A stretch of DNA of 64,000 nt, taken from NCBI GenBank assembly GCA_963700635.1, contig CAVOYH010000003.1, positions 704,001 to 768,000 of the forward strand, written 5' to 3'. The notes beneath the pieces were generated by a model. The model saw nothing but the letters and a program-made list of their open reading frames with translations, was not told the DNA's origin and made no database searches. The DNA comes from an uncultured Bacteroidota bacterium. Its GTDB lineage: Bacteria > Bacteroidota > Ignavibacteria > UBA10030 > UBA6906. The translations under genes and the position numbers were made by a program. Shown here piece by piece: positions 1 to 12,899 of the stretch; positions within the stretch are counted from its first letter, which is position 1, and the number at the start of each line of letters is the position of its first letter.

Positions 1-1
1 C

Positions 2-892
2 ACCGCACTCATTGGTCTCTTCCTCTGGCTGTCCGTTAACCTCGGTGAACACTACCAGTACACAGTTTCAGCGCCTCTCACCATTTATGAAGTGCCGGAT
101 GGCATGGCGATCCGCACCCCCGTGCCGCGGTTCGTCCAGCTGAAGTTCCGGGGTGATGGGTGGCGTCTGGCCGGTCTCCTTCTGGGTCCTGACATAAAGG
201 TGAAGATCCCGTTGAGCGCGCTCCCGCAGGGAAATCGCACGATTACCGTGAATGAAGTTGTCGAACGGATTTCGTTTTCACCGGGCCTGCAATTAGTCGA
301 TGTAAACCCGGACACGGTTGTTGTGTGGCTTGACCGTCTGAGCACAAAGCGCGTGCCCGTGGTACCCGATTTGATTATTACATTTAAGGAAGGATACGGG
401 CAGATCGGCACCGTGATGGTATCGCCCGATAGTGTCTCCATCAGCGGCGCTGAATCCGTTGTCGACCGGATCACGTCCTGGAAAACATTCCACACATCAT
501 TTGAAGAACTGAAAGCGCCAATCGAAGAAACCGTCCCGCTCGCGCAGAGTGACGGTCCGATTGTGCGCAGTTCCCCCTCCTCGGTGCGTGTGCACATCAA
601 CGTCGAGTCATTTGCTGAAAAAGTGTTTAGTGGTCTGCCCGTGGAAATCCGCGGCGTGCCGGTGAACCGCGACGTCATCTTCATCCCACCCAAGATGGAG
701 ATTGTTGCCCGGGGAGGTATACGGCAACTGGCAAGCGTATTGCCGGTGGACTTTCAGCTGGAGGTTTTATACGAACGGATACTTGCCGACACCACAGGCA
801 CCATCGAGGCAGACGTTGTGGCTCCGTCGGGTATCCAGGTTGTCGCACGCAGACCGGAGAAACTCCAGTACATCGTGCGAAAGCGTCTCTAA
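2..892 (+). CDS. YbbR/CdaR-like domain protein (5' partial)
   Basis: Frame is open from position 2 (TALIGLFLWLSVNL, an N-terminal TM segment). Repeated beta-rich YbbR-like units (VPVVPDL..GY..V.VSPDSV.ISG; P.V.I.G). Confidence 0.7.
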   Translation, partial: TALIGLFLWLSVNLGEHYQYTVSAPLTIYEVPDGMAIRTPVPRFVQLKFRGDGWRLAGLLLGPDIKVKIPLSALPQGNRTITVNEVVERISFSPGLQLVDVNPDTVVVWLDRLSTKRVPVVPDLIITFKEGYGQIGTVMVSPDSVSISGAESVVDRITSWKTFHTSFEELKAPIEETVPLAQSDGPIVRSSPSSVRVHINVESFAEKVFSGLPVEIRGVPVNRDVIFIPPKMEIVARGGIRQLASVLPVDFQLEVLYERILADTTGTIEADVVAPSGIQVVARRPEKLQYIVRKRL

Positions 893-964
893 AGAGAACG
901 GTGCGGGTGTCCACAACCGGTCTTGTGAGGCATTCGGCAGGGAACAGAAGGAGAACAATTTTCC

Positions 965-1675
965 ATGCGATTGTGTATCAACATTGATCATGTCGCCACC
1001 CTCCGCGAAGCCCGGGGTGGCATGGAGCCGGACCCCATCATGGCTGCCCATCTGTGCGAGCTCGCGGGCGCGCATGGCATCGTGTGCCATCTGCGCGAAG
1101 ACCGGCGTCACATCAACGACCGGGATCTGAGGCTCCTTCGGGAAACGGTGAAGACGAAGCTGGATCTGGAAATGGCCGCCACGGATGAGATTGTAAAAAT
1201 CGCCATTGACACACTTCCTGAACTTGTGACGTTTGTCCCCGAGCGCAGGCAGGAGCTGACCACGGAGGGGGGGCTGGATGTCCGCGGACACCGGCATCAT
1301 CTCCGCGACATTATCACGGAAATGCATCGCCATGAGATTGAGGTAAGTCTGTTTATCGATCCGGTGACAGAACAGGTGGAAGCTGCAGCGGAGGTGCAGG
1401 CGGACAAGATTGAAATTCACACGGGGGAATATGCCAATGCAGGTTCCGAACGCGAACAACTGGCTCTGCTGGAGATCGTGCGGGGCGCGGCACGGCATGC
1501 GCGGGAACTTGGCATGGGCGTCAACGCCGGCCACGGCCTCAACTACCTGAACATCCTCCCCTTCAGAGAGATCGAGGAGATTGAAGAAGTCAGCATCGGG
1601 CACGCTATAATTTCACGCGCCCTTTACGTGGGTCTCGACCGTGCAGTGAGAGAAATGGGTGACCTGGTTAGATAG
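965..1675 (+). CDS. pdxJ: Pyridoxine 5'-phosphate synthase
   Basis: Motifs NIDHVATLREAR, HLREDRRHI, TTEGGLD, VNAGHGLNY, IGHAIISRA. Confidence 0.97.
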   Translation: MRLCINIDHVATLREARGGMEPDPIMAAHLCELAGAHGIVCHLREDRRHINDRDLRLLRETVKTKLDLEMAATDEIVKIAIDTLPELVTFVPERRQELTTEGGLDVRGHRHHLRDIITEMHRHEIEVSLFIDPVTEQVEAAAEVQADKIEIHTGEYANAGSEREQLALLEIVRGAARHARELGMGVNAGHGLNYLNILPFREIEEIEEVSIGHAIISRALYVGLDRAVREMGDLVR

Positions 1676-1855
1676 ACCTCTGTCTATCCCCTCGCGAGCA
1701 CCCAAACGACAAGCAGCGTCAGAGTAGCGAAAACAAGAACTCTTGGCAAGGATTTCAAGAACCCTCCCCCCTCGTTGTGATCTCTCTCCCTCTTTTTGTC
1801 ACAAACGGGCATGTCTGCAGAAATTCGGATGGCAGACCTGCTTTTCCCGTCGATT

Positions 1856-2998
1856 TCAGGCCCTTCTCAAAATCACCATGGCACTCAACACCATGAGAGC
1901 TGCGACAACGAAAAGAGCCGCGTGGAATGTCCCGGTGGAGTCATAGACAAGTCCGGCAAGGATCGGCGCCGGCGCCGCAAGGATGTTGGCGGAAAAAAGG
2001 AGTCCGTACACTTGTCCGACCCGGGCCGTACCCCATACACGCGCGACAGCCGATGCGTACAGGACGAGTACTCCTCCGTAGTTAAAACCTGCCACCATCG
2101 CAAAGACAACAAGTCCGGCACCGGTGCCACAGGAAAATACAATCACCGAACACGCCTGGAAGATGAGATTTGCACTGATGACTGTGCGCAGTTCCGTCCG
2201 GTCGAACAGATATCCCCACGTTAACCGTCCAAGAGCATTCGCAACCGCAAAAAGCGACACTGCCGCGACTCCTGTTGTTAACGCCCCGGCTGTTGACAAT
2301 TCTTTCAGGTTGGCATTAATCATAAAACCCGCAGCAAGTCCCGTGACCATCGCCAGATAGAGCAGCCGGAATGTGGGGTGAGATACTATTGCTGTTGTGG
2401 AGAGAAGGGGCGGCTCAGATGTAGTTGTTCCGCTGGGAAACCGTAATGTGCGGGAGGCCAGAGACGTCACACCGCAGAAGAGTATTCCCAGAACCAGAAA
2501 TACGTAAAATGGTGATGTGCTTCCTGCGATCAACCACAAACCTGAGACCTGACTGATCAAAGCCGCCCCTCCGCCAAACCCCGCAACGGCAACTCCTGTC
2601 ACTAGCCCTCTACGTTCGGGAAACCACCGCACCAGGACTGCAATGGGCACGACATACGCACACCCGACGCCGATCCCTGCAAGAAGTCCGATTCCCAGCA
2701 CGGTGAACACAAAATGGTAAGAACCCAGCGAAGCAAGAATCCAGCCGGAGCCAAAAAGAATTCCCCCCACCAGCGCACAACGTTGCGGACCCAAGCGGTT
2801 CAGGATCGTTCCGGCAAAGAGCATCGTAGCCGGAAATGCGAAATAGAAGACTGTGAAGGGAAGCTGTACCGTAGCCTGTGAGAGTCCCGTGGTCTCACGG
2901 AGAGGCAGCACAAAGACAGACCATGCATACGTCGCCCCCAGACACATCTGGAGGCCGAGGGATGCAACAATGATCAGGGAACGACGGGGCGTGTTCAT
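1856..2998 (-). CDS. MFS transporter, oxalate:formate antiporter (OFA)-like
   Basis: About 12 TM helices; YAWSVF, WFPERRGLVTG, NALGR..WG..DR motifs. Confidence 0.85.
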   Translation of the reverse strand: MNTPRRSLIIVASLGLQMCLGATYAWSVFVLPLRETTGLSQATVQLPFTVFYFAFPATMLFAGTILNRLGPQRCALVGGILFGSGWILASLGSYHFVFTVLGIGLLAGIGVGCAYVVPIAVLVRWFPERRGLVTGVAVAGFGGGAALISQVSGLWLIAGSTSPFYVFLVLGILFCGVTSLASRTLRFPSGTTTSEPPLLSTTAIVSHPTFRLLYLAMVTGLAAGFMINANLKELSTAGALTTGVAAVSLFAVANALGRLTWGYLFDRTELRTVISANLIFQACSVIVFSCGTGAGLVVFAMVAGFNYGGVLVLYASAVARVWGTARVGQVYGLLFSANILAAPAPILAGLVYDSTGTFHAALFVVAALMVLSAMVILRRA

Positions 2999-3006
2999 AC
3001 GTGGCG

Positions 3007-5322
3007 TTACAACGGATCCCGCTCAACGCCAAGTTCCCAGCGCCGGCTTTGCCGCATCAGCGAATCAAAATAGTGACTGTTGGGATTCGTCTGCAATCTC
3101 CCATTCGCCTTCAGCAAATCCACCATTAAGTCGTAGCTATCCCCCGTTGACGTGTACAGGAATCGCATGTGCCTGTCAAATGTGTAGTTGAGGATTGGCT
3201 CCGAGGGCCATCCCGGCGGGATATCGGGGCCTAATCCGTCACTGATGCACGCCGTGATTCGTCCGAGCCGCTCATCAACCTTTGTAAACAGAGCTGAATT
3301 TCCCTTGCTTGAGCCACGGAAGGCATCTCCCACGGCCGTGCGCGGAATCAGGATATAGTATTTCTCCCTGGCTGCAACGGGGGCATCACAGCGGTACTCT
3401 CCTTGTGTCGGAGAACAGCCATCCATCTGTCCGACTTCCAGAACTGCAACAAAGGCACGCCGGTATGCATTGTTGACGCCACAGGCAACAATCTCTTTCA
3501 CCCCATCCTGATCCACATCTCCGACTTCGATATCTGCCACATGTCCGACATGGACGTATTGTTCCCGTATTGTACCGTCGCGCCCATTCAGGCGCACGAC
3601 AAAACCTGGAAATGATGGTGTGTGCGACCCCGAAACAAACACATCCGGAGCGCCCTCCACACCGGTATCCATGACCACGATGTCTGAGTTACAGTAGGTT
3701 CCTCCGAGGGTTTCCTGCTTTTCTGGAAAAAGCGCCCTGGGAATGATCGTCGTTCGCCAGAGAAAAGTTTCTTTTTGAATGGACCATGCGCACACCTCAT
3801 CGTGTACCACCAGACGATCCGAACTGGTCCGGACAAATACGATATCGGGAACATGATCTCCATCAAAATCGCCGAAACCGTGCCCCTTCTGTGCCACCAT
3901 AGTGCTGACAAGACGTGTCCCCTTCTCAACAGTGGCCCTTCCTACGGTGATGTCCCCTATCATCTTTCCGTACCGGTTCTGCACCGTAAGTCTGTCGCCT
4001 GCATATTCCACCGATACAGGAATCTTATCCCATGATCCCGACAGGTGCCAGAGTGTCAACAGAACGAGCCCCGAGGATGCGACAAGTGCCACACTGCGGG
4101 TCTTTTTCTGCCATATCCTTCGGGCGGTATGAGCGACCAGACCCGACCGGGTATGCCGTGTCACCCGCCGGTCATAAAACACTTCCCGCACATGCCGCAC
4201 CCCGATCACATCCAGCACGCGGTGTGGATGATCCTTTGAGAGTGCCGCAATCAGACTTTCGGCAACGGTCAGGTGGTTCCTGGGGACGACCACGGCCGAG
4301 AGAGGGGAATAGAATACTGCTTCGAGTTTCTGTGGAAGCGTGCCCTCGTCAACGGGCATGACCGATCCGTCGGGATCCACATCTCCGGTGATTGCCACTG
4401 ATGAAAGGACGTCGTATTGTTCGCGTTGTCCGGCAGCGCGTGTTACGCCGGCGATGAGGAGGACCGCCAGGGCGAGGTTTGCCGACCCGCCTTCGTGCAG
4501 GGTCTGTTTGCCGCGGAACGTCGCATGGCCGCGCACATAGTTCCGGGCTATACGTGGCTGCATTTGTTCCAGTACGCTCCGCGCCGCTCTTGCCGAAGTG
4601 TCCCACACCGCTGCATGAACATCCTTCACTCCAAAGACGGCCACATCGGAATGCAGCTCATCTTTTTCGCCTCCTGCCGCACCGGTGATCTGAAGTTCCA
4701 GCATCTGCATTCCTCCCCACGATGCCGGCGCCGCACCCTCTGTCAGGCCATGTTCGACGACAGGAACAAAACAGGAGTTGGAGGATCGTTGAAGGGCAGA
4801 TTCCCAGTGTGCCTGGATTATGCGCAAGGAGGTGGAAACCGGGTGACCCGACGCTTCAACTTCGGCTGTCCACCGGCGTACCCGTTCAAACAAAGGCTCG
4901 CGACCCTCCTCTGGTACCGGCACGGTTGATCCCGGATCGCCACCAGCATCAAGAACCTGCCATGCCCTGTCCCGATCACCCGCGTACAGATACAACTCCG
5001 CCAGCCGTAATCGGATTTCATGTTCAATTTCTGCAAACATCGGTTCTAGGGCAAACCCTGAAACATCGTCCGCCAGAACTGCCAGCGTACGATGGAGTGA
5101 AGCAAGTGGCTGGGGGGAGAGTCCGAATGTCGGCAATTCCTGGATCGTCCCCTTCAGCCTTGGAAGGCAATCACGGATATACGATTCGTATACACCTGCC
5201 TCTTGGCCAAGAAAGGAGAGAAAATGGTCGAGTGCAACGATATCCTGAAGGGAAGAGTGGGGATAAGCGAGTGTGACAAGAAGGGTCTGGTAGTGCTGCT
5301 CGACCGTGAGAGGATTGTGCAT
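3007..5322 (-). CDS. Membrane-anchored Lon-type (S16) protease-domain protein with C-terminal FG-GAP repeat domain
   Basis: HEGGS280ANLA...VAITGDVDPDGSVMPV...PQK332 aligns by eye with the Lon proteolytic domain (DGPSAG...AMTGEI..G.VLPIGGLKEK). One TM at about aa 410-428 after RRIWQKKTR. C-terminal GDFDGDHVPDIV and GDVDQDGVKEIV repeats. Confidence 0.75.
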   Translation of the reverse strand: MHNPLTVEQHYQTLLVTLAYPHSSLQDIVALDHFLSFLGQEAGVYESYIRDCLPRLKGTIQELPTFGLSPQPLASLHRTLAVLADDVSGFALEPMFAEIEHEIRLRLAELYLYAGDRDRAWQVLDAGGDPGSTVPVPEEGREPLFERVRRWTAEVEASGHPVSTSLRIIQAHWESALQRSSNSCFVPVVEHGLTEGAAPASWGGMQMLELQITGAAGGEKDELHSDVAVFGVKDVHAAVWDTSARAARSVLEQMQPRIARNYVRGHATFRGKQTLHEGGSANLALAVLLIAGVTRAAGQREQYDVLSSVAITGDVDPDGSVMPVDEGTLPQKLEAVFYSPLSAVVVPRNHLTVAESLIAALSKDHPHRVLDVIGVRHVREVFYDRRVTRHTRSGLVAHTARRIWQKKTRSVALVASSGLVLLTLWHLSGSWDKIPVSVEYAGDRLTVQNRYGKMIGDITVGRATVEKGTRLVSTMVAQKGHGFGDFDGDHVPDIVFVRTSSDRLVVHDEVCAWSIQKETFLWRTTIIPRALFPEKQETLGGTYCNSDIVVMDTGVEGAPDVFVSGSHTPSFPGFVVRLNGRDGTIREQYVHVGHVADIEVGDVDQDGVKEIVACGVNNAYRRAFVAVLEVGQMDGCSPTQGEYRCDAPVAAREKYYILIPRTAVGDAFRGSSKGNSALFTKVDERLGRITACISDGLGPDIPPGWPSEPILNYTFDRHMRFLYTSTGDSYDLMVDLLKANGRLQTNPNSHYFDSLMRQSRRWELGVERDPL

Positions 5323-5419
5323 AGGAGCTCATGAGACTGCACATCGTACAAAGGGCTCAGGACGCGAGTGGCGGCCAACGGAAAATTCGGCGTGACACGG
5401 ACCGGTGAAGTTACCGGCT

Positions 5420-6265
5420 TTATCCGTACAGTCGCAACACGAAATCCCCCTCCCCTGCGGGGAATTCTCCTGCTCCATGGATCAGAATGCTCAACACGGC
5501 GTCAGACGGAGTCTTCACCAGTGCCACTGCTGGCAGGGCGGGATTTCCCTCGTCATACACACGGACACGGATGAGATCTCCGTTGTTCGTCACCTCGATT
5601 GTACAATGGTGGTCGTTCTCACCCTTCGTGTAGGCGATGGATTTCTCCAGGGGCAGGTCATTTCGGCCGAACGTAACTGTCGCCACCGGTATGCGAAGGA
5701 GTCCTTCGATCTGGGACCAATCACGCGGTTCCATTGCCGGCTGTAACTCAAAACCAACCTGCCCCCGGTCGTCCGTCACAAACTCGCCTATATCCGGAAG
5801 GGAGATCAGCACAACTTCTCGTTTATGCGGATCTTCCGTATGGACGTACAGGCGGTATGCATGCGCATCACCCTCACGCCGTATTCGTACAAGGGTGTTT
5901 TCGGGTTCAGATGCCAGTGTTGCGACCGTTTCGTCAAATCCACGGGCCAACGTCCGGGGTGTCATCGCCGCGAGCACCGTCGTATATCTGCCGTGCAGCG
6001 TGTGCATGTCAGGCCGGGGTCTGAAAGGGATAAGCCGGATGGTCGTTGCTGATGGGATAATCTTCTTCATAACTTCTGCGAGAAGATCTTTCTCCAGAGC
6101 CCCGGCGGTTACCATCGTCGCATAAAACTCCCGCTGCGCTTCCTCCACGGCCCTGCACCCCGGGCACCGGGCCAGATGTTCCCGTATTTCTACGAGTGTG
6201 GCAGCATGCAGTCGCTCAGGGGCGACAATACTGAGTTCGATTGTATGTTCGTCAATATGGTTCAT
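5420..6265 (-). CDS. Putative soluble zinc-finger (zf-HC2/ZAS) anti-sigma factor with C-terminal beta-rich domain
   Basis: N-terminal His plus H30xxxC34xxC37 (EHLARCPGC). No TM segment. Lies directly downstream of the sigma-like gene. Confidence 0.7.
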   Translation of the reverse strand: MNHIDEHTIELSIVAPERLHAATLVEIREHLARCPGCRAVEEAQREFYATMVTAGALEKDLLAEVMKKIIPSATTIRLIPFRPRPDMHTLHGRYTTVLAAMTPRTLARGFDETVATLASEPENTLVRIRREGDAHAYRLYVHTEDPHKREVVLISLPDIGEFVTDDRGQVGFELQPAMEPRDWSQIEGLLRIPVATVTFGRNDLPLEKSIAYTKGENDHHCTIEVTNNGDLIRVRVYDEGNPALPAVALVKTPSDAVLSILIHGAGEFPAGEGDFVLRLYG

Positions 6266-6342
6266 TGTTACTATTGGTTATGCGCAAATCTCTCCTCCCA
6301 CAGAAATCCGCCGTTCTCTCTCCACCGGTTGGGGAGAGCCAA

Positions 6343-7374
6343 TCACGGAACTTTTCCGATCCCCAATTCCCGTCTGATTTGTCGTACAAACGCCGCCCTT
6401 GCGAGTTTTACCAGGTATTCAAATCGACACCGGTGCTCCTGATGATATTGTTCCAATGTCAGCAAGGGTATTCCCGCGGCGAGATGGTCATGGTACGAGG
6501 TGGCGTGTCCGTCGTTTAAAATGAACTCAGCCCGGAGAATCGCCTGAACAGCTTCCCTGTAGGCGCTGAATGTTGTTTCAGCCACCGTTCCTTTCTCTAC
6601 ATAGAGCCTGTGCTTTTTGTCAAATACAGCAGTCACCGTTCCGGTGATTGCCGCTTCAAGTTCTTCCGGACGGATCGCCGATGAAGTGTCCGTCTCTTCC
6701 GGGGTTGTTGCAACACCGATGCGCAAAAAGGCCGTGCGGATCAGCAGGCCAAGCAGCGTTAACGGATAACTCCTCCGGTAGATATTCTGTTGATCCAAAA
6801 TACATGCAACACGATCCATCACTTCAGGCATGACGCTCTTTCCCGAGAGGTCCACAACAAGGAGGCCCTCAAGATATTCCCAGGGGATCTCCGGCAGCTG
6901 CCGGATGTGCTCGGTCTCTGTCGTTACCTGCACCCACAACTCGCCGTTGCGGCGATCTTCAGTCAACCGGGAATTCTTCCGGATGGCATTGCGGATATTG
7001 CGAAGTATCTTTTCCAGAGAGGGATCGGACTCTTTATAGAGCCGTGACAGTTGCTGATGGACTTTACTGTAGACGAGGCGGCGGGTGAAGGAAAGAAGCT
7101 CCTCTTCGGAGAGCGAGTCCCATCCAAGGGGCGTATAGTATGCGTGCAGTTGAACGAATCGTCCGCTTCCATCCCGTTCATAGAGGGGCCCGATACAGTC
7201 GACAGCGAGATCATGAACAGAAAGACCAAAAAAATCGGGATGGATGGTACGTGCGTGGATTCTCTTATGAAGATAGACCGTGGCAATCCGAATCGTCAGG
7301 GCAACATACGGCTGCATATCCGTCGTTGTCGGGTGCGGCGCGAGAATGCGTCGGAGGGCTTCGCTGAGATGCAT
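6343..7374 (-). CDS. Putative divergent ECF-type sigma-factor-like protein
   Basis: DLAVDCIGPLY and LLSFTRRLVYSKVHQQLSRL resemble sigma region 2. C-terminal basic helix LVKLARAAFVRQIRREL resembles the end of region 4. Adjacent to a ZAS gene. ATG at 7374 is preceded by AGGGGA. Confidence 0.5.
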   Translation of the reverse strand: MHLSEALRRILAPHPTTTDMQPYVALTIRIATVYLHKRIHARTIHPDFFGLSVHDLAVDCIGPLYERDGSGRFVQLHAYYTPLGWDSLSEEELLSFTRRLVYSKVHQQLSRLYKESDPSLEKILRNIRNAIRKNSRLTEDRRNGELWVQVTTETEHIRQLPEIPWEYLEGLLVVDLSGKSVMPEVMDRVACILDQQNIYRRSYPLTLLGLLIRTAFLRIGVATTPEETDTSSAIRPEELEAAITGTVTAVFDKKHRLYVEKGTVAETTFSAYREAVQAILRAEFILNDGHATSYHDHLAAGIPLLTLEQYHQEHRCRFEYLVKLARAAFVRQIRRELGIGKVP

Positions 7375-7424
7375 TGTTCCCCTGAATGTCAGCAGCAGCA
7401 ATGCCCCGTGGGGGCACTGCCGTA

Positions 7425-8024
7425 TTAGTCGCGAATCTCCAATCTCCGGATCTCATCCCGCAGGCCCGCGGCCTTCTCGTAATCCTCTTTTTCGATCGCC
7501 TGCTTCAGCTGTTGATGGAGCTGTTCGAGACGGGTAAGCTTGTTGGGTGGCTGATCTTTTGGTGCTGCAGCGGCTTTGGGTGGTTTTGCGCCTCCCCCCT
7601 CTTTCTGTTGTGCTTCCTCTTCTTCTTCCTCCGGCACAAATGACGCTTCGTCCATAACGCCACCCGCCACAAAAATCTGCGCGCCATACCGGACGGCGAG
7701 GGCGATCGCATCACTCGGACGGGAATCAATGAGCTGGTTGTCAATATTCAGCTTTGCGTAAAATGTCCCGTCGCGCAGGTCGTCAATCGTAACATCCATC
7801 AGTTCGGAACCAAACGATGTGATGATGTTTTTCATCAGATCGTGCGTCAGCGGTCGTGGCGGCTTGATCCCCTCCATTTCCAGGGCGATTGACTGCGCCT
7901 CGGCCTGCCCGATAATAATCGGCAGGCGGCGGGTCCCTTCGACTTCCCGGAGAATCAACGCATACGCTCCGCCACTGGCGGGATTTGTTGAGAGTCCTAG
8001 TATATCAACCAGCACGCGTTCCAC
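7425..8024 (-). CDS. Bifunctional nuclease family (DUF151) protein with C-terminal UVR domain
   Basis: RRLPIIIG..EAQSIA, RPLTHDL, IDSRPSDAIALA; C-terminal EDYEKAAGLRDEI (UVR). Confidence 0.93.
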   Translation of the reverse strand: MERVLVDILGLSTNPASGGAYALILREVEGTRRLPIIIGQAEAQSIALEMEGIKPPRPLTHDLMKNIITSFGSELMDVTIDDLRDGTFYAKLNIDNQLIDSRPSDAIALAVRYGAQIFVAGGVMDEASFVPEEEEEEAQQKEGGGAKPPKAAAAPKDQPPNKLTRLEQLHQQLKQAIEKEDYEKAAGLRDEIRRLEIRD

Positions 8025-8097
8025 ACTATACTCCTTCCCTGGGTCAGCTCCTCATCGCCCTGGTCTCGATGATCGTCATGCATCCATCACGGTCTGT

Positions 8098-9069
8098 CTA
8101 TTTCCCGAGCGCCTGCTTTAACTGCGATGTCAGTTCGGGAAGAATCTCGAACACATCTCCCGCAATGCCATAGTCTGCAATCTGAAAGATCGGGGCGTCT
8201 TTATCCTTGTTGATGGCCACAATGTACTTCGACGATGACATACCTGCAATATGTTGAACCGCCCCGGAGATTCCGCATGCAACATACAGTGTCGGAGACA
8301 CCGTCTTCCCGGTTTGTCCAACCTGTTCGTCGTGCGGGCGCCAGCCGGCATCCACCACAGCGCGTGACGCACCCACCGCCGCACCGAGCACATCAGCCAG
8401 CGATTCCAGCAGAGCAAAATGCTCCGGCCCTTTCATTCCGCGACCGCCGGAGACGATGATGTCCGCTTCTGTGACATCAGGCCGGCCTGTGGAAACTTGT
8501 ACATCCTTAACGACAGTGACAAAGTCGGCCGGATCAAGCGCCACTGACACCGACTCGACGGTCGGATCACTGCCTCCCGGGGTCGCGGTGAAGACGTTCG
8601 GGCGCAACGTAAACACCTTCACCGGCGTTGTCACACGCACATCCACGAGCGCCTTTCCTGCATACACCGGCCGCGTCGCTATAATATCGCCGTTCTCAAC
8701 CTTGAGATCCACGCAGTCGCCTGCGAGACCCGCCTTCAGCTTCAGGGCAACGCGGGGGGCAAGGTCTTTCCCCATCTGGCTCGCGGGCAGGAACACGATT
8801 CCGGCACCCTGTTTCGTTGCCACCTCGGCGATCACTTTTGCGTATGCAACGCTGGCATGCGCGGCGAGTGTTGGATCATCCACAACCACAACACGTGATG
8901 CGCCGAACTGTCCGAGTTCCTTTGCCATGGTAGTGATGCCACTGCCAACGACAAGGGCACAGAATTCGGCTTTGAGTGTGTCGGCTACGCCCCGCGCTGC
9001 ACGAATGGTCTCAAACGAGGATTTCTTAAATTTTCCATCACGATGTTCGGCAAATGCAAGAATAGTCAT
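8098..9069 (-). CDS. etfA: Electron transfer flavoprotein alpha subunit
   Basis: [47 protein letters not shown]. Confidence 0.96.
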
Positions 9070-9070
9070 A

Positions 9071-9817
9071 TCAGATCACCTTGGCTTCGTCATGCAACAA
9101 TCGGAGCAATTCAGGGATTGCGGTTTTGTCGGTCCCGATAATTTTGCCGGATGATTTTGCCGGCGGTTTCCGCATCGCATCGGTGACCACCCGGGATTCG
9201 GCTGCAGCCGCTGGTTTCTCTTCAATCGGCTTGCTCTTGGCCGCCATGATCCCCTTGAGTGACGGATAACGCGGCTCGTTGAGCCCTTTTTGTGCAAGAA
9301 ATACTGCCGGGAGTTTTGTCTCAACCGTTTCATGCCCGCCTTCGATTTCGCGCTGGCAGACAACCTTGTCCTCCTGGAGGTCAACCTTGACAACAACTCC
9401 CACAGAAGGCATATCGAGCATTTCCGCCACAGACGTGCCAACCTGTGCATCGTCAAAATCGATGGATTGTTTGCCGAAGAGGATCACATCCGGGGCAAGT
9501 GTGCGCAGCTCCGCAGCGAGACCAAAAGCAACGGAATATGAGTCCCGTTCCGCCTCATCCACAAGCAGCACAGCCCTGTCAGCACCCATGGCCAGGGCTT
9601 TGCGGAGCGTTTCTTTGTGTTTTTCGCCACCCAGGCTAATGACCACCACTTCCCCCTTAAACTTGTCACGTATGCGGAGGCCCTCTTCGACGGCGATTTC
9701 GTCATACGGACTCATGATAAAATTCACCCCTGTGCGGTCAATACCTTTGTTATCGGGGGCGATTTTGATCTTTGTTTCCGTATCGGGGACATGGTTTATG
9801 CAGACTGCAACCTTCAT
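9071..9817 (-). CDS. etfB: Electron transfer flavoprotein beta subunit
   Basis: [40 protein letters not shown]. Confidence 0.96.
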
Positions 9818-9894
9818 CCAAATGGTCTCCTGTGTTGAATTATGGTGTTCCGGAGCCGGGACTGCTCTTCACGGAATCTCTGGGGGAGTATAGA

Positions 9895-9923
9895 AATATA
9901 CCATCCCACGCCCCCAAAGGCAA
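9895..9923 (-). promoter_or_regulatory. Putative sigma70 promoter for etfBA and downstream genes
   Basis: TTGCCT-N17-TATATT with a TGn extended -10 on the minus strand. Confidence 0.55.
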
Positions 9924-9930
9924 CCGGGCT

Positions 9931-9959
9931 TTGACTTTGTCCGATGATTTCCGTATTGT
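9931..9959 (+). promoter_or_regulatory. Putative sigma70 promoter for rpsT
   Basis: TTGACT-N17-TATTGT, back-to-back with the etfB promoter. Confidence 0.55.
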
Positions 9960-10013
9960 ATATGTTCAGTACCTTAACTGTTGACGTAATCCTTTTTTTG
10001 GAGAAGCAGCCGG

Positions 10014-10268
10014 ATGGCTCAGCACGAATCGGCGGAAAAGAGGGCCCGGCAGTCGAAACGCCGTGCAGCCCGTAATGCCCAGTGGAAATCGCGCATGCGT
10101 AATGCCATCAAGCGCGTCAGGACCACAACGGACAAAGACAAAGCAAAGACCGAATTGAACAAGACGGTAAAGCTGCTCGACCAGCTCGCCGCGAAGGGCG
10201 TGATCCACAAGAACACAGCATCCAACCAGAAGTCACGCCTCACCAAGCTTGTCAACTCCCTGAAGTAG
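10014..10268 (+). CDS. rpsT: 30S ribosomal protein S20
   Basis: 84 aa, basic; SAEKRARQ, KGVIHKNTASNQKSRL. Confidence 0.97.
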   Translation: MAQHESAEKRARQSKRRAARNAQWKSRMRNAIKRVRTTTDKDKAKTELNKTVKLLDQLAAKGVIHKNTASNQKSRLTKLVNSLK

Positions 10269-10862
10269 CTTTTCGAGCACTTCAAGGCGTTCACGAAAGC
10301 GTCCGGCCTCCCCCGGGCGCTGTTGCATCAAGAGACGGTATGCCGCAACAGCCGCCCTGTACTCACCTTGCTGCGCATAAATCTCAGCCAGTGTTACGGT
10401 CATTCGTTGCGGTACCTCGCCGTCGCTTCCTCTGCTGTCCTGTGATGGCGTAGCTTCCGGACTCTGCGTTCGTGCTCCCTCCGGCGAGCGTGATGACCCA
10501 AGGCGATCCCTTCCCTGCTTCACTCTCTGCAACTGGCGCAGCATAAAATCTATGCTGCTCTCTTCCTTGCCGGGTGTCGAAGGACCCTTCTGGGACTCTT
10601 CGCCCGAGACACGCCGTAACGCTTCGCCGACTTCCTTGAGTCCGGGAACAAGCTGATTCACTCGCAGAAACTGTGCCGCCGCATCGTCCGGCTTACCGAG
10701 ATCTTCATAACATCGCCCGAGAATCCAGTACCCTGTGGCATAGTCCGGATACTTCCGCGTACCACCCAGACAGAGGCTCAGGGATGCTGCGACCTCGCCC
10801 CTGACAAGCAACTCCACGGCACGTTCTGCAAACCGCGGAGCGATCTCCTCCATCCCGACCAT
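10233..10862 (-). CDS. Tetratricopeptide repeat protein
   Basis: TPR-like helices (YPDYATGYWILGRCY; TLAEIYAQQGEY..A..AY). Start is 10862 or 10853. 3' end overlaps rpsT. Confidence 0.75.
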   Translation of the reverse strand: MVGMEEIAPRFAERAVELLVRGEVAASLSLCLGGTRKYPDYATGYWILGRCYEDLGKPDDAAAQFLRVNQLVPGLKEVGEALRRVSGEESQKGPSTPGKEESSIDFMLRQLQRVKQGRDRLGSSRSPEGARTQSPEATPSQDSRGSDGEVPQRMTVTLAEIYAQQGEYRAAVAAYRLLMQQRPGEAGRFRERLEVLEKLLQGVDKLGEA

Positions 10863-10863
10863 C

Positions 10864-12336
10864 TTACCTACCACCGCTCGGCCGCCGGGCATGATATGCA
10901 TGCTTCACCGACAGGACAGAGACAAAGGAAAATCCCAGGAAGAACATCAGCTGAAAGGGAACCGCCGCTATTTCAAGAAAATAGACCGACGCGACCACTC
11001 CGATCAGACAGTACAGCGCGAGCACGACTTCCAGAATCACCGTCGCGCTGATCTTGATCGGCACATAACTCTTGTCACGCCACGAATCCGTCTTTGCTCG
11101 TATGGAGTACTTGGGTGTGCGTACAAATTCACTTTTCCGTTTGAAAAGACCTTCGAGCACGGCCCGGCTGTTATTGACGGCAAACCCCATACTGCCAGCC
11201 ATAAAGATCGGGAAAAGGAAAATCCGTTTGCGCCAGTCAACATAGACATCTTTTTGCGAAAATAGATAAAAAAGAAATGAACCGATAAACGCAAAGACAA
11301 AGACCGACATAAATACAAAATAGATGTCGTGCGCACCTGCATGCTTGATGAACACCAGCGGCACATTCAGTATTCCCGCCAGCACGATAAACGGAAAGAC
11401 GAGATTGTTCGTGAGGTGGAATGTCGCATGAACCTTGATCTTCAGCGGGAGCGCAGATTTCCAGACCTCCGGAAGCATTTTCCGGGCCGTTTCGATCGCT
11501 CCCTTGGTCCAGCGGAATTGCTGGGACTTCAACGCATTAATCTCTGAGGGCAGCTCTGCGGGAGATGTGACGTTGTTGAGATATTTGAATTTCCAGCCGC
11601 GGAGCTGTGCCCGGTAGCTGAGATCAAGATCTTCGGTAAGGGTATCCGCCTGCCAGTTGCCGGCATCCAGGATACATTCCTTTTTCCAGATGCCCGCTGT
11701 GCCGTTGAAGTTGATGAAGAACCCCACCTTGTTCCGCACGGACTGTTCGATGACAAAATGTCCATCCAGCGCCATGGCCTGTGTGCGGGTAAGCAGTGAG
11801 TAGTCGGCGTTAATATGTTCCCACCGTGTTTGCACCATACCGATCCGCGGATCGGCGGAGAAGTGTGGAAGTGTCTTAAGCAGGAAGTCCTGCCGAGGAA
11901 CAAAATCGGCATCGAAGATGGCAATAAATTCTCCGCGCGCGTTTGTCAGTCCTTCTTTGAGAGCACCGGCCTTAAATCCCTGCCGGTTCGCACGCCGGAC
12001 CTGCTTGATGTCAAAGCCGAGTTTCTGATACCGCTCCACATGCTCCGCAACAAGATCCACCGTCTCATCGGTCGAGTCATCGAGCACCTGAATCTCCAGC
12101 TTGTCCTTCGGATAGATCATTGCGCATGCGGCATCAATAAGGCGCCCGACGACATACACCTCATTGTAGACGGGAAGCTGCACGGTCACCACAGGATACG
12201 TATCCAGCGTCTTGACGGTGGGCTGTATCCGGGTGCGGAACTTCAAATAGTAATAGATCATAATAAAACCGTGCGACCCGAATACGAAGAGGATCGTTAA
12301 TGCGCCAATGTAGGTAAAGAGGATGATCTCTTCCAT
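10864..12336 (-). CDS. Cellulose-synthase-like family 2 glycosyltransferase
   Basis: QLPVYNE, DDSTD, KAGAL, DADF, TEDLDL, QQFRW (QxxRW) and flanking TM helices. Start placed at MEEIILF. Confidence 0.9.
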   Translation of the reverse strand: MEEIILFTYIGALTILFVFGSHGFIMIYYYLKFRTRIQPTVKTLDTYPVVTVQLPVYNEVYVVGRLIDAACAMIYPKDKLEIQVLDDSTDETVDLVAEHVERYQKLGFDIKQVRRANRQGFKAGALKEGLTNARGEFIAIFDADFVPRQDFLLKTLPHFSADPRIGMVQTRWEHINADYSLLTRTQAMALDGHFVIEQSVRNKVGFFINFNGTAGIWKKECILDAGNWQADTLTEDLDLSYRAQLRGWKFKYLNNVTSPAELPSEINALKSQQFRWTKGAIETARKMLPEVWKSALPLKIKVHATFHLTNNLVFPFIVLAGILNVPLVFIKHAGAHDIYFVFMSVFVFAFIGSFLFYLFSQKDVYVDWRKRIFLFPIFMAGSMGFAVNNSRAVLEGLFKRKSEFVRTPKYSIRAKTDSWRDKSYVPIKISATVILEVVLALYCLIGVVASVYFLEIAAVPFQLMFFLGFSFVSVLSVKHAYHARRPSGGR

Positions 12337-12386
12337 AGCAAGTATTTTTGTCAGAAACCTAAGTTGTGAATGGAACTGAGTGGCAG

Positions 12387-12899
12387 TCACCAGCCAGATA
12401 CTGTTTCAAGCAAGACATCTTCACTGATTTTCCGGATCGCTTCTTGCATTCCCGCCTTCCGTTGTGACACGCCACCTCCGGAGTCGTAGTCCCCCCAGTT
12501 GGAAAAATTCTTTTCCCAGACCTTGCGGCGTAGTTTCATGTCCTGAAATGTGAACTTGACCGACATGGTGATGCGGCGTTTGCTCACCTGCTCACCCTGC
12601 TCGACAACGGAGGGTGCATCGGTCACGGTAACGATGGACCCGACCAGCAGCGCATCTGCGGTACTCCGATCGGCAACCTGCAGACTGTTGTCGTTGATAA
12701 AGAGATCCGTCACGGACCGTGTCACTTCCTCCCGCAATCCAGGTTCACCGAATCCCGACTGATCGTCGATCAGTGGAACGGCGATGGTTTTCAGATGTGA
12801 CGGGACAGAAGCCCCGGTAAAGGAATAGACGCATCCGGTAACAAGGAACGCAACCGTGCAGGCAAAGATGTGTACGGGGCCGGTGTTCCGTCTTTTCAT
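12387..12899 (-). CDS. lptE: LptE-family lipoprotein (LPS assembly)
   Basis: Lipobox LVTGC followed by YSFTGAS; C-terminal W; usual position after the sigma54 activator in FCB genomes. Confidence 0.75.

Follow-up and report, generated by a model that had tools for sequence, protein, structure and literature searches.

A membrane-spanning Lon-type protease without an AAA+ motor, encoded in a conserved three-gene cassette with an anti-sigma-like partner

The stretch of DNA analyzed here, called the window below, comprises 64,000 nucleotides of an uncultured Bacteroidota bacterium (assembly GCA_963700635.1, contig CAVOYH010000003.1, positions 704,001 to 768,000), and three genes follow one another on its reverse strand. 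In the order of transcription, they encode an orphan helical protein (P0004), a soluble anti-sigma-like protein (P0003) and a protein, P0001, in which a Lon-type protease domain is joined through a membrane helix to a beta-propeller (Table 1). The intergenic gaps are 77 bases between genes 1 and 2 and 97 bases between genes 2 and 3. A preliminary description, made from the DNA letters and their open reading frames (ORFs), had dealt with the third gene and read its product as a one-component receptor protease; the ORF with its Ser and Lys codons is as described there. The anatomy of P0001 and of the cassette can be stated with high confidence, and the mechanism proposed further below with moderate confidence.

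Table 1. Coordinates of the cassette genes and of their features in the window
Feature	Position	Strand	Basis or remark
P0004, gene 1, orphan helical protein, 343 aa	6343..7374	(-)	N-terminal ~125 residues sigma domain 2-like by fold only
P0003, gene 2, soluble anti-sigma-like protein, 281 aa	5420..6265	(-)	N-terminal helices, linker, C-terminal beta-rich domain
H30-x3-C34-x2-C37, ZAS-type zinc motif of P0003	6155..6178	(-)	translation
V97-L98-A99-A100 of P0003, candidate cleavage site or cryptic C-degron	5966..5977	(-)	conservation
P0001, gene 3 of cassette, receptor protease	3007..5322	(-)	771 aa plus stop, ATG start (5322)
Helical N-terminal domain of P0001, residues 1-177, predicted P0003 docking surface	4792..5322	(-)	model helices 4-177
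Lon-fold (S16-type) protease domain of P0001, residues 178-386	4165..4791	(-)	fold and profile matches
S280 of P0001 (HEGGS280ANLA)	codon 4483-4485	(-)	counted from ORF start 5322
K332 of P0001 (PQK332LEAV)	codon 4327-4329	(-)	counted from ORF start 5322
Single transmembrane helix of P0001, residues ~411-429, RRIWQKKTR in front	4036..4092	(-)	hydrophobicity
FG-GAP beta-propeller of P0001, extracytoplasmic, residues 432-771, presumed sensor	3010..4029	(-)	fold, DxDxDG-type loops

P0001 contains a real Lon-type protease domain with its Ser-Lys dyad. When the AlphaFold model of the protein (mean pLDDT 77.5) was compared with known structures, Foldseek returned Lon protease domains at E 2.4e-10 with a probability of 1.00 and a TM-score of 0.71 on the E. 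coli domain. In the VIA structure comparison, residues 177-386 were superimposed on the LONP1 protease domain (6wys_A, length 189) with Z 20.0 and a root-mean-square deviation (rmsd) of 2.5 Å over 179 residues, and the Z scores were 18.8 for E. coli Lon (1rr9; 18.7 in a wider search) and 17.6 for A. fulgidus LonB (1z0e). Sequence comparison gave a similar picture. A phmmer search of PDB sequences with P0001 matched the protease domain of A. fulgidus LonB only (four distinct sequences, E 2.8e-4 to 1.7e-3), and a first profile of seven sequences, the window protein and six homologues, matched that domain at E 1e-6 and then LonA and mitochondrial Lon, with 51 distinct PDB sequences at E ≤ 1. In the phmmer alignment with A. 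fulgidus LonB, S280 is paired with the Ser of EGDSAS and K332 with the Lys of QKIEA. The two residues of the dyad are 52 residues apart in P0001 and 43 in E. coli Lon, because P0001 carries 7 and 2 additional residues at two places between them, which bears out the two short insertions by which the preliminary description had explained the spacing. What weighs against the assignment is the Pfam model Lon_C (PF05362), which gave E 0.11 and 12.5 bits on P0001, under its cut-off of 21.1; the NCBIfam LonB model gave E 0.005. Among 64 scanned members of the 138 aligned homologues described below, Lon_C matches 7 at E ≤ 0.01 and reaches its cut-off in 2.

The family is large. A profile search over 1.84 billion representative proteins yielded 4526 proteins at E ≤ 1e-3 and 960 representative clusters at E ≤ 1e-30, and among the matches listed, every source name of a member is "hypothetical protein" or "uncharacterized protein". 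For the analysis of conservation, 138 homologues of 690-850 aa were aligned from the matches listed. S280 is kept in 138 of 138 and K332 in 136, so that the refutation allowed for in the preliminary description, a dyad that is not conserved, fails. Around the dyad, G278 and G313 are each kept in 138 of 138, and T312 is Thr in 128 members and Ser in the other 10. The HxGxSA motif and the Lys are also kept in 17 of 17 copies from related loci, tandem paralogues included. The protease domain is probably active.

The protein had been called ATPase-less, and the searches agree with this. The Walker A pattern is absent from P0001 and occurs anywhere in only 4 of the 138 members; AAA families of Pfam were found neither in P0001 nor in the 64 scanned members. 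The sole Walker-B-like string of P0001, AVLADD at residue 81, lies inside the helical N-domain. Some structural rows reach residues 68-176 of the model against the AAA+ small subdomain of LONP1 (rmsd about 6 Å), and a vestigial AAA+ small subdomain in the N-domain may be read from these superpositions, at most as a hint. The same N-terminus had been described as helical and TPR-like; it is helical in the model (residues 4-177), and no TPR family matched at E ≤ 1.

P0001 has one hydrophobic peak of transmembrane (TM) grade, at about residues 411-429 (Kyte-Doolittle 1.63), and a peak of at least 1.6 is present in all 138 members, with a family median of 2.3. When the 15 residues on the N-terminal side of this helix were compared with the 15 on the C-terminal side, the Lys and Arg count was higher on the N-terminal side in 135 of the 138, equal in 1 and lower in 2. 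Therefore, the Lon half is cytoplasmic and the C-terminal half lies outside, which is the orientation that had been predicted from RRIWQKKTR. In the VIA comparison, the model from about residue 431 to 750 matched beta-propellers with Z 13.5-16.0, among them BBSome (16.0), integrin alpha (14.6-15.5) and YncE (14.5). Pfam FG-GAP_3 matched residues 557-612 at E 1.6e-5 and 25.9 bits, just below the cut-off of 26.9, and FG-GAP or FG-GAP_3 was found at E ≤ 0.01 in 47 of the 64 scanned members. The loops of the Ca-binding type that had been noted in the C-terminus are in place, DFDGD at 485 and DVDQDG at 602. A Pfam scan for Lon_C and FG-GAP had been suggested as a check, and it leaves both domains of P0001 under their cut-offs, with the fold searches supporting both. 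P0001 is a single-pass membrane protein with a cytoplasmic helical domain, a Lon protease domain without the AAA+ motor and an extracytoplasmic FG-GAP propeller with Ca-binding-type loops.

The neighbors of the protease gene are conserved as well. One genome per species was scanned, and 13 loci were obtained from Ignavibacteriota, Chlorobi-like lineages, Bacteroidetes and Balneolaceae, with the cultured carriers Gracilimonas mengyeensis, G. tropica and Rhodohalobacter sulfatireducens. In all of them the order on one strand is a P0004-like gene (~335-340 aa), a P0003-like gene (~250-300 aa) and one to three copies of the protease gene. By transitive clustering, the P0003-like gene is present in 13 of 13 loci, and the P0004-like gene lies directly upstream of it in 12, the contig of the 13th ending before that position. 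No further neighbor is common to four or more of the 13 loci. In a survey of the phylum (301 genomes, window genome included; profile matches at E ≤ 1e-20), 33 genomes matched, 22 of them with coverage of the Lon domain and 11 with the TM-propeller part only, in frames of ~470-800 aa; one further genome carries both a Lon-covering and a propeller-only match. The distribution is patchy, the Lon-containing form being found in 22 of the 301 genomes.

The copy number of the protease gene varies. Tandem copies stand behind a single pair of partner genes in L002 (7953-12763), L008 (5126-9752) and L009 (2333-7023), with two copies each, and in L007 (3223-10313), with three; all keep the Ser and the Lys. 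In such loci, one anti-sigma-like protein may receive the signals of several sensors. In L005, two divergent cassettes lie on one contig, at 1-3760 (-) and 6050-10304 (+), and the protease gene of the second is cut by the contig end.

Six places with the propeller only (L016-L021, in genomes G089, G014, G033, G197, G057 and G201) were examined, and all six show the same arrangement: a P0004-like gene (blastp E 3e-13 to 4e-40) comes first, and the next gene on that strand encodes a single protein of 467-515 aa. This fusion protein combines an N-terminus like that of P0003 (E 5e-4 to 3e-8) with a TM helix and a homologue of the P0001 propeller (E 6e-11 to 3e-21), and it has no Lon domain. HxxxCxxC was read by eye in 6 of 6 fused proteins, and zf-HC2 matched 2 of the 6 at E ≤ 0.1. 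The fusion links propeller, anti-sigma-like domain and P0004 as parts of a single pathway. What seems to be this pathway again is found in the three-gene form, where the anti-sigma-like part is soluble and the sensor has been transferred to the protease.

P0003, the middle protein, has no TM-grade hydrophobic peak. The zinc motif in its N-terminal helices, HxxxCxxC, is found in 16 of 24 family members, and the zf-HC2 family matched 4 of 11 members at E ≤ 1. Two observations count against an anti-sigma assignment of P0003, namely that zf-HC2 (PF13490) gave E 0.011 and 16.3 bits on the window protein, below the cut-off of 22.2, and that the other 8 of the 24 relatives are without the motif. A P0003 profile gave nothing below E 0.24 in PDB sequences. 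Conservation in the family is highest at V-[LM]-A-A, residues 97-100, which is present in 24 of 24 relatives, with V, A and A invariant and L in 23 of 24. The element is situated in the linker that joins the N-terminal helices to the C-terminal beta-rich domain. R127 is likewise kept in 24 of 24.

Complex prediction with residues 1-390 of P0001 (138-row alignment) and P0003 (24 rows) suggests that P0003 docks on the N-domain of the protease. The ipSAE scores of the pair were 0.66, 0.66 and 0.69, whereas the best of three controls scored 0.00; the mark used for ipSAE is reached by 58 of 80 solved complexes and by 2 of 110 mismatched pairs, a rough guide only, with self-made alignments. The runs agree on at least 86% of contacts, and the pLDDT of the partner is at least 73. 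The predicted interface joins residues 1-17, 44-54 and 193-195 of P0001 with residues 81-90, 111-144 and 167-169 of P0003. It contains conserved residues of both proteins, P4, E8 and Y48 of P0001, which are kept in 107, 103 (plus 18 with Asp) and 126 of the 138 members, and T116 and R127 of P0003. Since a solved CalpL-CalpT complex exists (see below), there is a small chance that the prediction merely reproduces that known structure; however, neither P0001 nor P0003 has detectable sequence similarity to those chains. The V-L-A-A element lies between two docked segments of P0003. Because the gene ends a conserved three-gene cassette and its product is predicted to dock P0003, the one-component reading of the preliminary description fails.

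P0004 is the least tractable of the three proteins. Its start is at ATG 7374, as in homologues and in the database call of 343 aa, and not at TTG 7401 of the mechanical ORF. A ribosome-binding-like AGGGGA precedes this ATG, and the end of a BFN/UVR gene lies about 50 bases before it. No match to P0004 was found in Pfam, NCBIfam or PDB sequences. In its model (pLDDT 82.7), Foldseek found nothing at E ≤ 0.001. In the exhaustive VIA comparison, 16 of the best 50 rows were entries containing sigma factors, aligned to about residues 1-126 of P0004 with Z 5.4-8.0; an example is the RsbN-BldN complex (6dxo_A; Z 7.1, rmsd 2.4 Å over 78).

Several results weigh against a sigma factor. The Z scores just given fall in a band that is common for helical proteins. 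No Sigma70 family of Pfam matched any of 13 P0004 members at E ≤ 1; a genome-wide search with Sigma70_r2 (PF04542) found 14 genes without P0004 among them; hhalign of P0004 against 8 extracytoplasmic function (ECF) sigma factors of its own genome gave probabilities of 1.4% and 0.8%; and profiles of 13 and 49 P0004 sequences matched nothing in PDB sequences. In the ESM Atlas, the whole protein and residues 10-145 fell in unnamed clusters, with faint leads to Sigma70_r2/r4 at 0.82-0.84, below the 0.9 line. A promoter motif common to the regions upstream of 19 P0004-like genes was also looked for, and none was found, which counts against the mechanism proposed below: the best 6-mer occurred in 7 and the best 7-mer in 5 of the 19, no better than in shuffled sequences. 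Among sequencing runs searched with a view to expression, none from RNA was listed, and two DNA runs contained only 0.05-0.06 of the words. An identification of P0004 as a sigma factor by sequence was thus tried and given up, with Pfam, PDB profiles, hhalign and the ESM Atlas all without support. Because the hints come from the fold only, we regard P0004 as possibly sigma-like and leave it outside the sigma-70 family.

The strongest motif of the P0004 family is D-P-S-L-x-K-I-[IL]-R-N at residues 117-126 of the 343-aa form. D117, P118 and N126 are invariant in 49 family sequences, and the motif comes directly after the sigma-2-like helices. In three Balneolaceae loci (L006, L008 and L010), the ~60 bases that lead up to the P0004-like gene contain an inverted repeat of the type TTAATTC-N5-7-GAATTAA, immediately ahead of the ribosome-binding site; none was seen in the window. 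The repeat could serve as an operator or form an RNA hairpin.

A published system offers a model for these components. As reported in the preprint on CalpL (10.1101/2024.05.08.593097), CalpL is an ATPase-less Lon protease whose N-domain holds CalpT; its protease activity requires filaments induced by cyclic tetra-adenylate (cA4), within which it cuts CalpT in trans between A204 and A205 of LAAA, and the cut exposes a degron ending in ...LQLAA, after which the sigma factor CalpS is freed. P0001 and CalpL are both ATPase-less Lon-type Ser-Lys proteases with a helical N-domain before and a sensor after the protease domain, and both belong to three-gene modules with an anti-sigma-type protein. The N-domain is in each case the docking site for the C-terminal part of this protein, as a prediction in the case of P0001 and P0003, and an Ala-rich motif lies between the two halves of the docked protein, the cut LAAA in CalpT and VLAA in P0003. 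The sensors differ, that of P0001 being a TM helix with a periplasmic FG-GAP propeller and that of CalpL a cytoplasmic, cA4-binding SAVED domain; P0003 carries HxxxCxxC, whereas CalpT has MazF/DUF2080, and P0004, unlike CalpS, is without detectable Sigma70 domains. CalpL was not among the best 50 structural rows for P0001 or among its PDB sequence matches, a result still compatible with kinship. Because of this absence we treat CalpL as a functional analogy, with no kinship shown beyond the Lon fold.

We consider it somewhat probable, at just under 60%, that P0001 is a transmembrane receptor protease that cleaves the docked, soluble anti-sigma-like P0003 in the manner of CalpL, CalpT and CalpS. 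The C-terminal domain of P0003 would sit on the N-domain of the protease, and its N-terminal HxxxCxxC helices would hold P0004. A periplasmic cue on the propeller would change the state of the protease, most likely its oligomeric state; activation by oligomerization rather than by ATP, as the preliminary description had proposed, is plausible by analogy. The protease would then cut the docked P0003 in its linker, at or near V-L-A-A, and expose a C-degron of the ...LAA type on the N-terminal fragment, whose degradation would free P0004. In this scheme, we infer the cleavage, the cut site, the trigger, the binding of P0003 to P0004 and the role of P0004 as a sigma factor. One feature of the predicted complex speaks against it, as the interface includes neither V-L-A-A nor the active site; for this reason the cut site is purely inferred, and cleavage would perhaps occur in trans. 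A fuller version can be offered tentatively, and we regard it, taken as a whole, as rather doubtful: an undescribed mode of signaling in which the propeller would be oligomerized by a ligand, the anti-sigma docked on the N-domain of a neighboring molecule would be cut in trans after V-L-A-A to yield an LAA degron, and the freed P0004 would be the founding member of a new, sequence-orphan family of sigma-like proteins.

Other explanations divide according to which part of this scheme they give up. If the target lies elsewhere, P0003 could be a regulator or adaptor of the protease, acting as an inhibitor or in substrate delivery, or the protease could cleave itself and release its N-domain with P0003. 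This is unlikely, but it would fit the predicted interface, which is stable and distant from the active-site residues, the segment 384-411 next to the membrane, which is disordered in the model, and the two to three tandem protease paralogues of L002, L007, L008 and L009. Against it, the linker motif kept in all 24 P0003 relatives parallels the LAAA at which CalpT is cut, and the cassette has no other conserved member to serve as the target. A general, ATP-independent membrane protease for housekeeping or processing, with a propeller that only anchors or recruits and with genes 1 and 2 as unrelated neighbors, seems to us quite improbable. Its Lon domain is closest to bona fide quality-control Lons, and the surroundings in the window (pdxJ, ETF, MFS, glycosyltransferase) are housekeeping genes, yet gene order and strand are constant in 13 of 13 loci from several lineages of the FCB group without any other common neighbor, the two-gene fusion joins the same propeller to the anti-sigma-like domain, and the patchy distribution (22 of 301) and the predicted docking of P0003 also argue against it.

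The remaining two explanations concern the catalytic activity and the trigger. In RadA and ComM the Lon-like domain is an inactive scaffold, and the fold alone would allow the same for P0001, with signaling by binding only, as these domains score nearly as high (Z 16.6-16.9). However, the identity in the VIA table is 17-21% to true Lon protease domains and 11-16% to ComM and RadA, and S280, K332, G278, G313 and a Thr or Ser at 312 are kept in the counts given above, so that a non-catalytic domain would surprise us greatly. An anti-phage module of the CalpL kind, triggered by infection, is suggested by the three-part logic, the patchy distribution and the variable copy number; we hold it to be very unlikely. 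None of the three proteins matched a PADLOC family at E ≤ 0.1, and PHROG matches appeared only at E 0.025-0.061. The cassette differs from CalpL, CalpT and CalpS in that no CRISPR context was seen, the 12 kb analyzed (window 1-12390) being free of SAVED, CARF and cas genes; its sensor is on the periplasmic side, and the flanking genes are housekeeping genes that are syntenic in the nearest relatives.

Compared with canonical Lon proteases (LonA and LonB), P0001 has the same protease fold and the homologous Ser-Lys dyad, and archaeal LonB is also membrane-bound. P0001 differs from both in being without the AAA+ module, in 9 extra residues between Ser and Lys, and in a single TM helix on the C-terminal side that leads to a large extracytoplasmic domain. 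An ordinary Lon is also encoded by the genome of the window, in a frame of 810 aa. Another ATP-independent Lon-like protein is the PDZ-Lon of the YlbL type. The Lon fold without a working unfoldase is likewise described for MtaLonC and the C-domain of BrxL (PMC3391209, PMC13069640), and their Z scores against P0001 were 16.5 (4fw9) and 15.7 (8eil). None of MtaLonC, BrxL and YlbL is known to have a TM-propeller sensor or a cassette of the sigma and anti-sigma type, and LonC, in contrast to P0001, retains a degenerate AAA-like module.

Class I membrane anti-sigma factors of the RseA and RsiW type are cleaved by regulated intramembrane proteolysis, and the C-degron of RseA ends in ...VAA. The two-gene variant has the layout of these proteins, with an HxxxCxxC N-terminus, a TM helix and a periplasmic sensor beside a P0004-like gene, and an Ala-Ala end point of the C-degron, as in RseA, is proposed for P0003. 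In the three-gene form, unlike in RseA and RsiW, the anti-sigma-like protein is soluble and the sensor is on the protease; if the mechanism is true, one receptor protease would replace the cascade of site-1 and site-2 cleavage.

In full-text searches of the literature, we came across no account of a Lon-type protease that carries a TM-FG-GAP sensor or belongs to a cassette of this kind, and none of the papers listed joins a Lon-like protease with FG-GAP or with ECF and anti-sigma factors. The combination of "Lon protease domain" with anti-sigma led only to the CalpL preprint and to a review of Bacillus proteases. The paper that reclassified ECF sigma factors (PMC7826278) mentions Lon, FG-GAP and S16 0 times in its main text; its supplements may list such groups. 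With moderate confidence, the cassette can be regarded as a new form of sensor-gated, ATP-free Lon protease that signals through an anti-sigma-type partner.

An envelope signal is known to reach an alternative sigma factor by stepwise intramembrane proteolysis, partner switching, phosphorylation or conformational change. To these routes, the proposed mechanism would, if true, add a single-pass receptor whose own Lon-type protease acts on a docked anti-sigma-like protein. The cassette would be an envelope-sensing counterpart of CalpL, CalpT and CalpS, and the logic of CalpL, a sensor-gated, ATP-free Lon that cuts an anti-sigma factor, would not be confined to CRISPR defense. The protease family is large and unannotated, and functions would also follow for the orphan families of P0003 and P0004. 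The idea is open to bench tests, since cultured Balneolaceae carry the cassette.

Two genes flank the cassette on the same strand. Downstream, a gene of the major facilitator superfamily (MFS) at 1856-2998 (-) begins 8 bases after the stop of the protease gene; it matches the NCBIfam model of L-lactate MFS transporters at E 5.5e-73, below the cut-off of the model. A gene 61-63% identical to it lies ~2.8 kb downstream in L001 and is missing from the other loci, and because its counterpart is found only there, the MFS gene is probably outside the module. Upstream, the cassette of the window is preceded by the gene of a BFN nuclease with a UVR motif at 7425-8024 (-). The same C-terminal coding sequence of BFN/UVR is found in L001 and L002, again upstream of the cassette, and the closest relatives thus share a syntenic insertion site.

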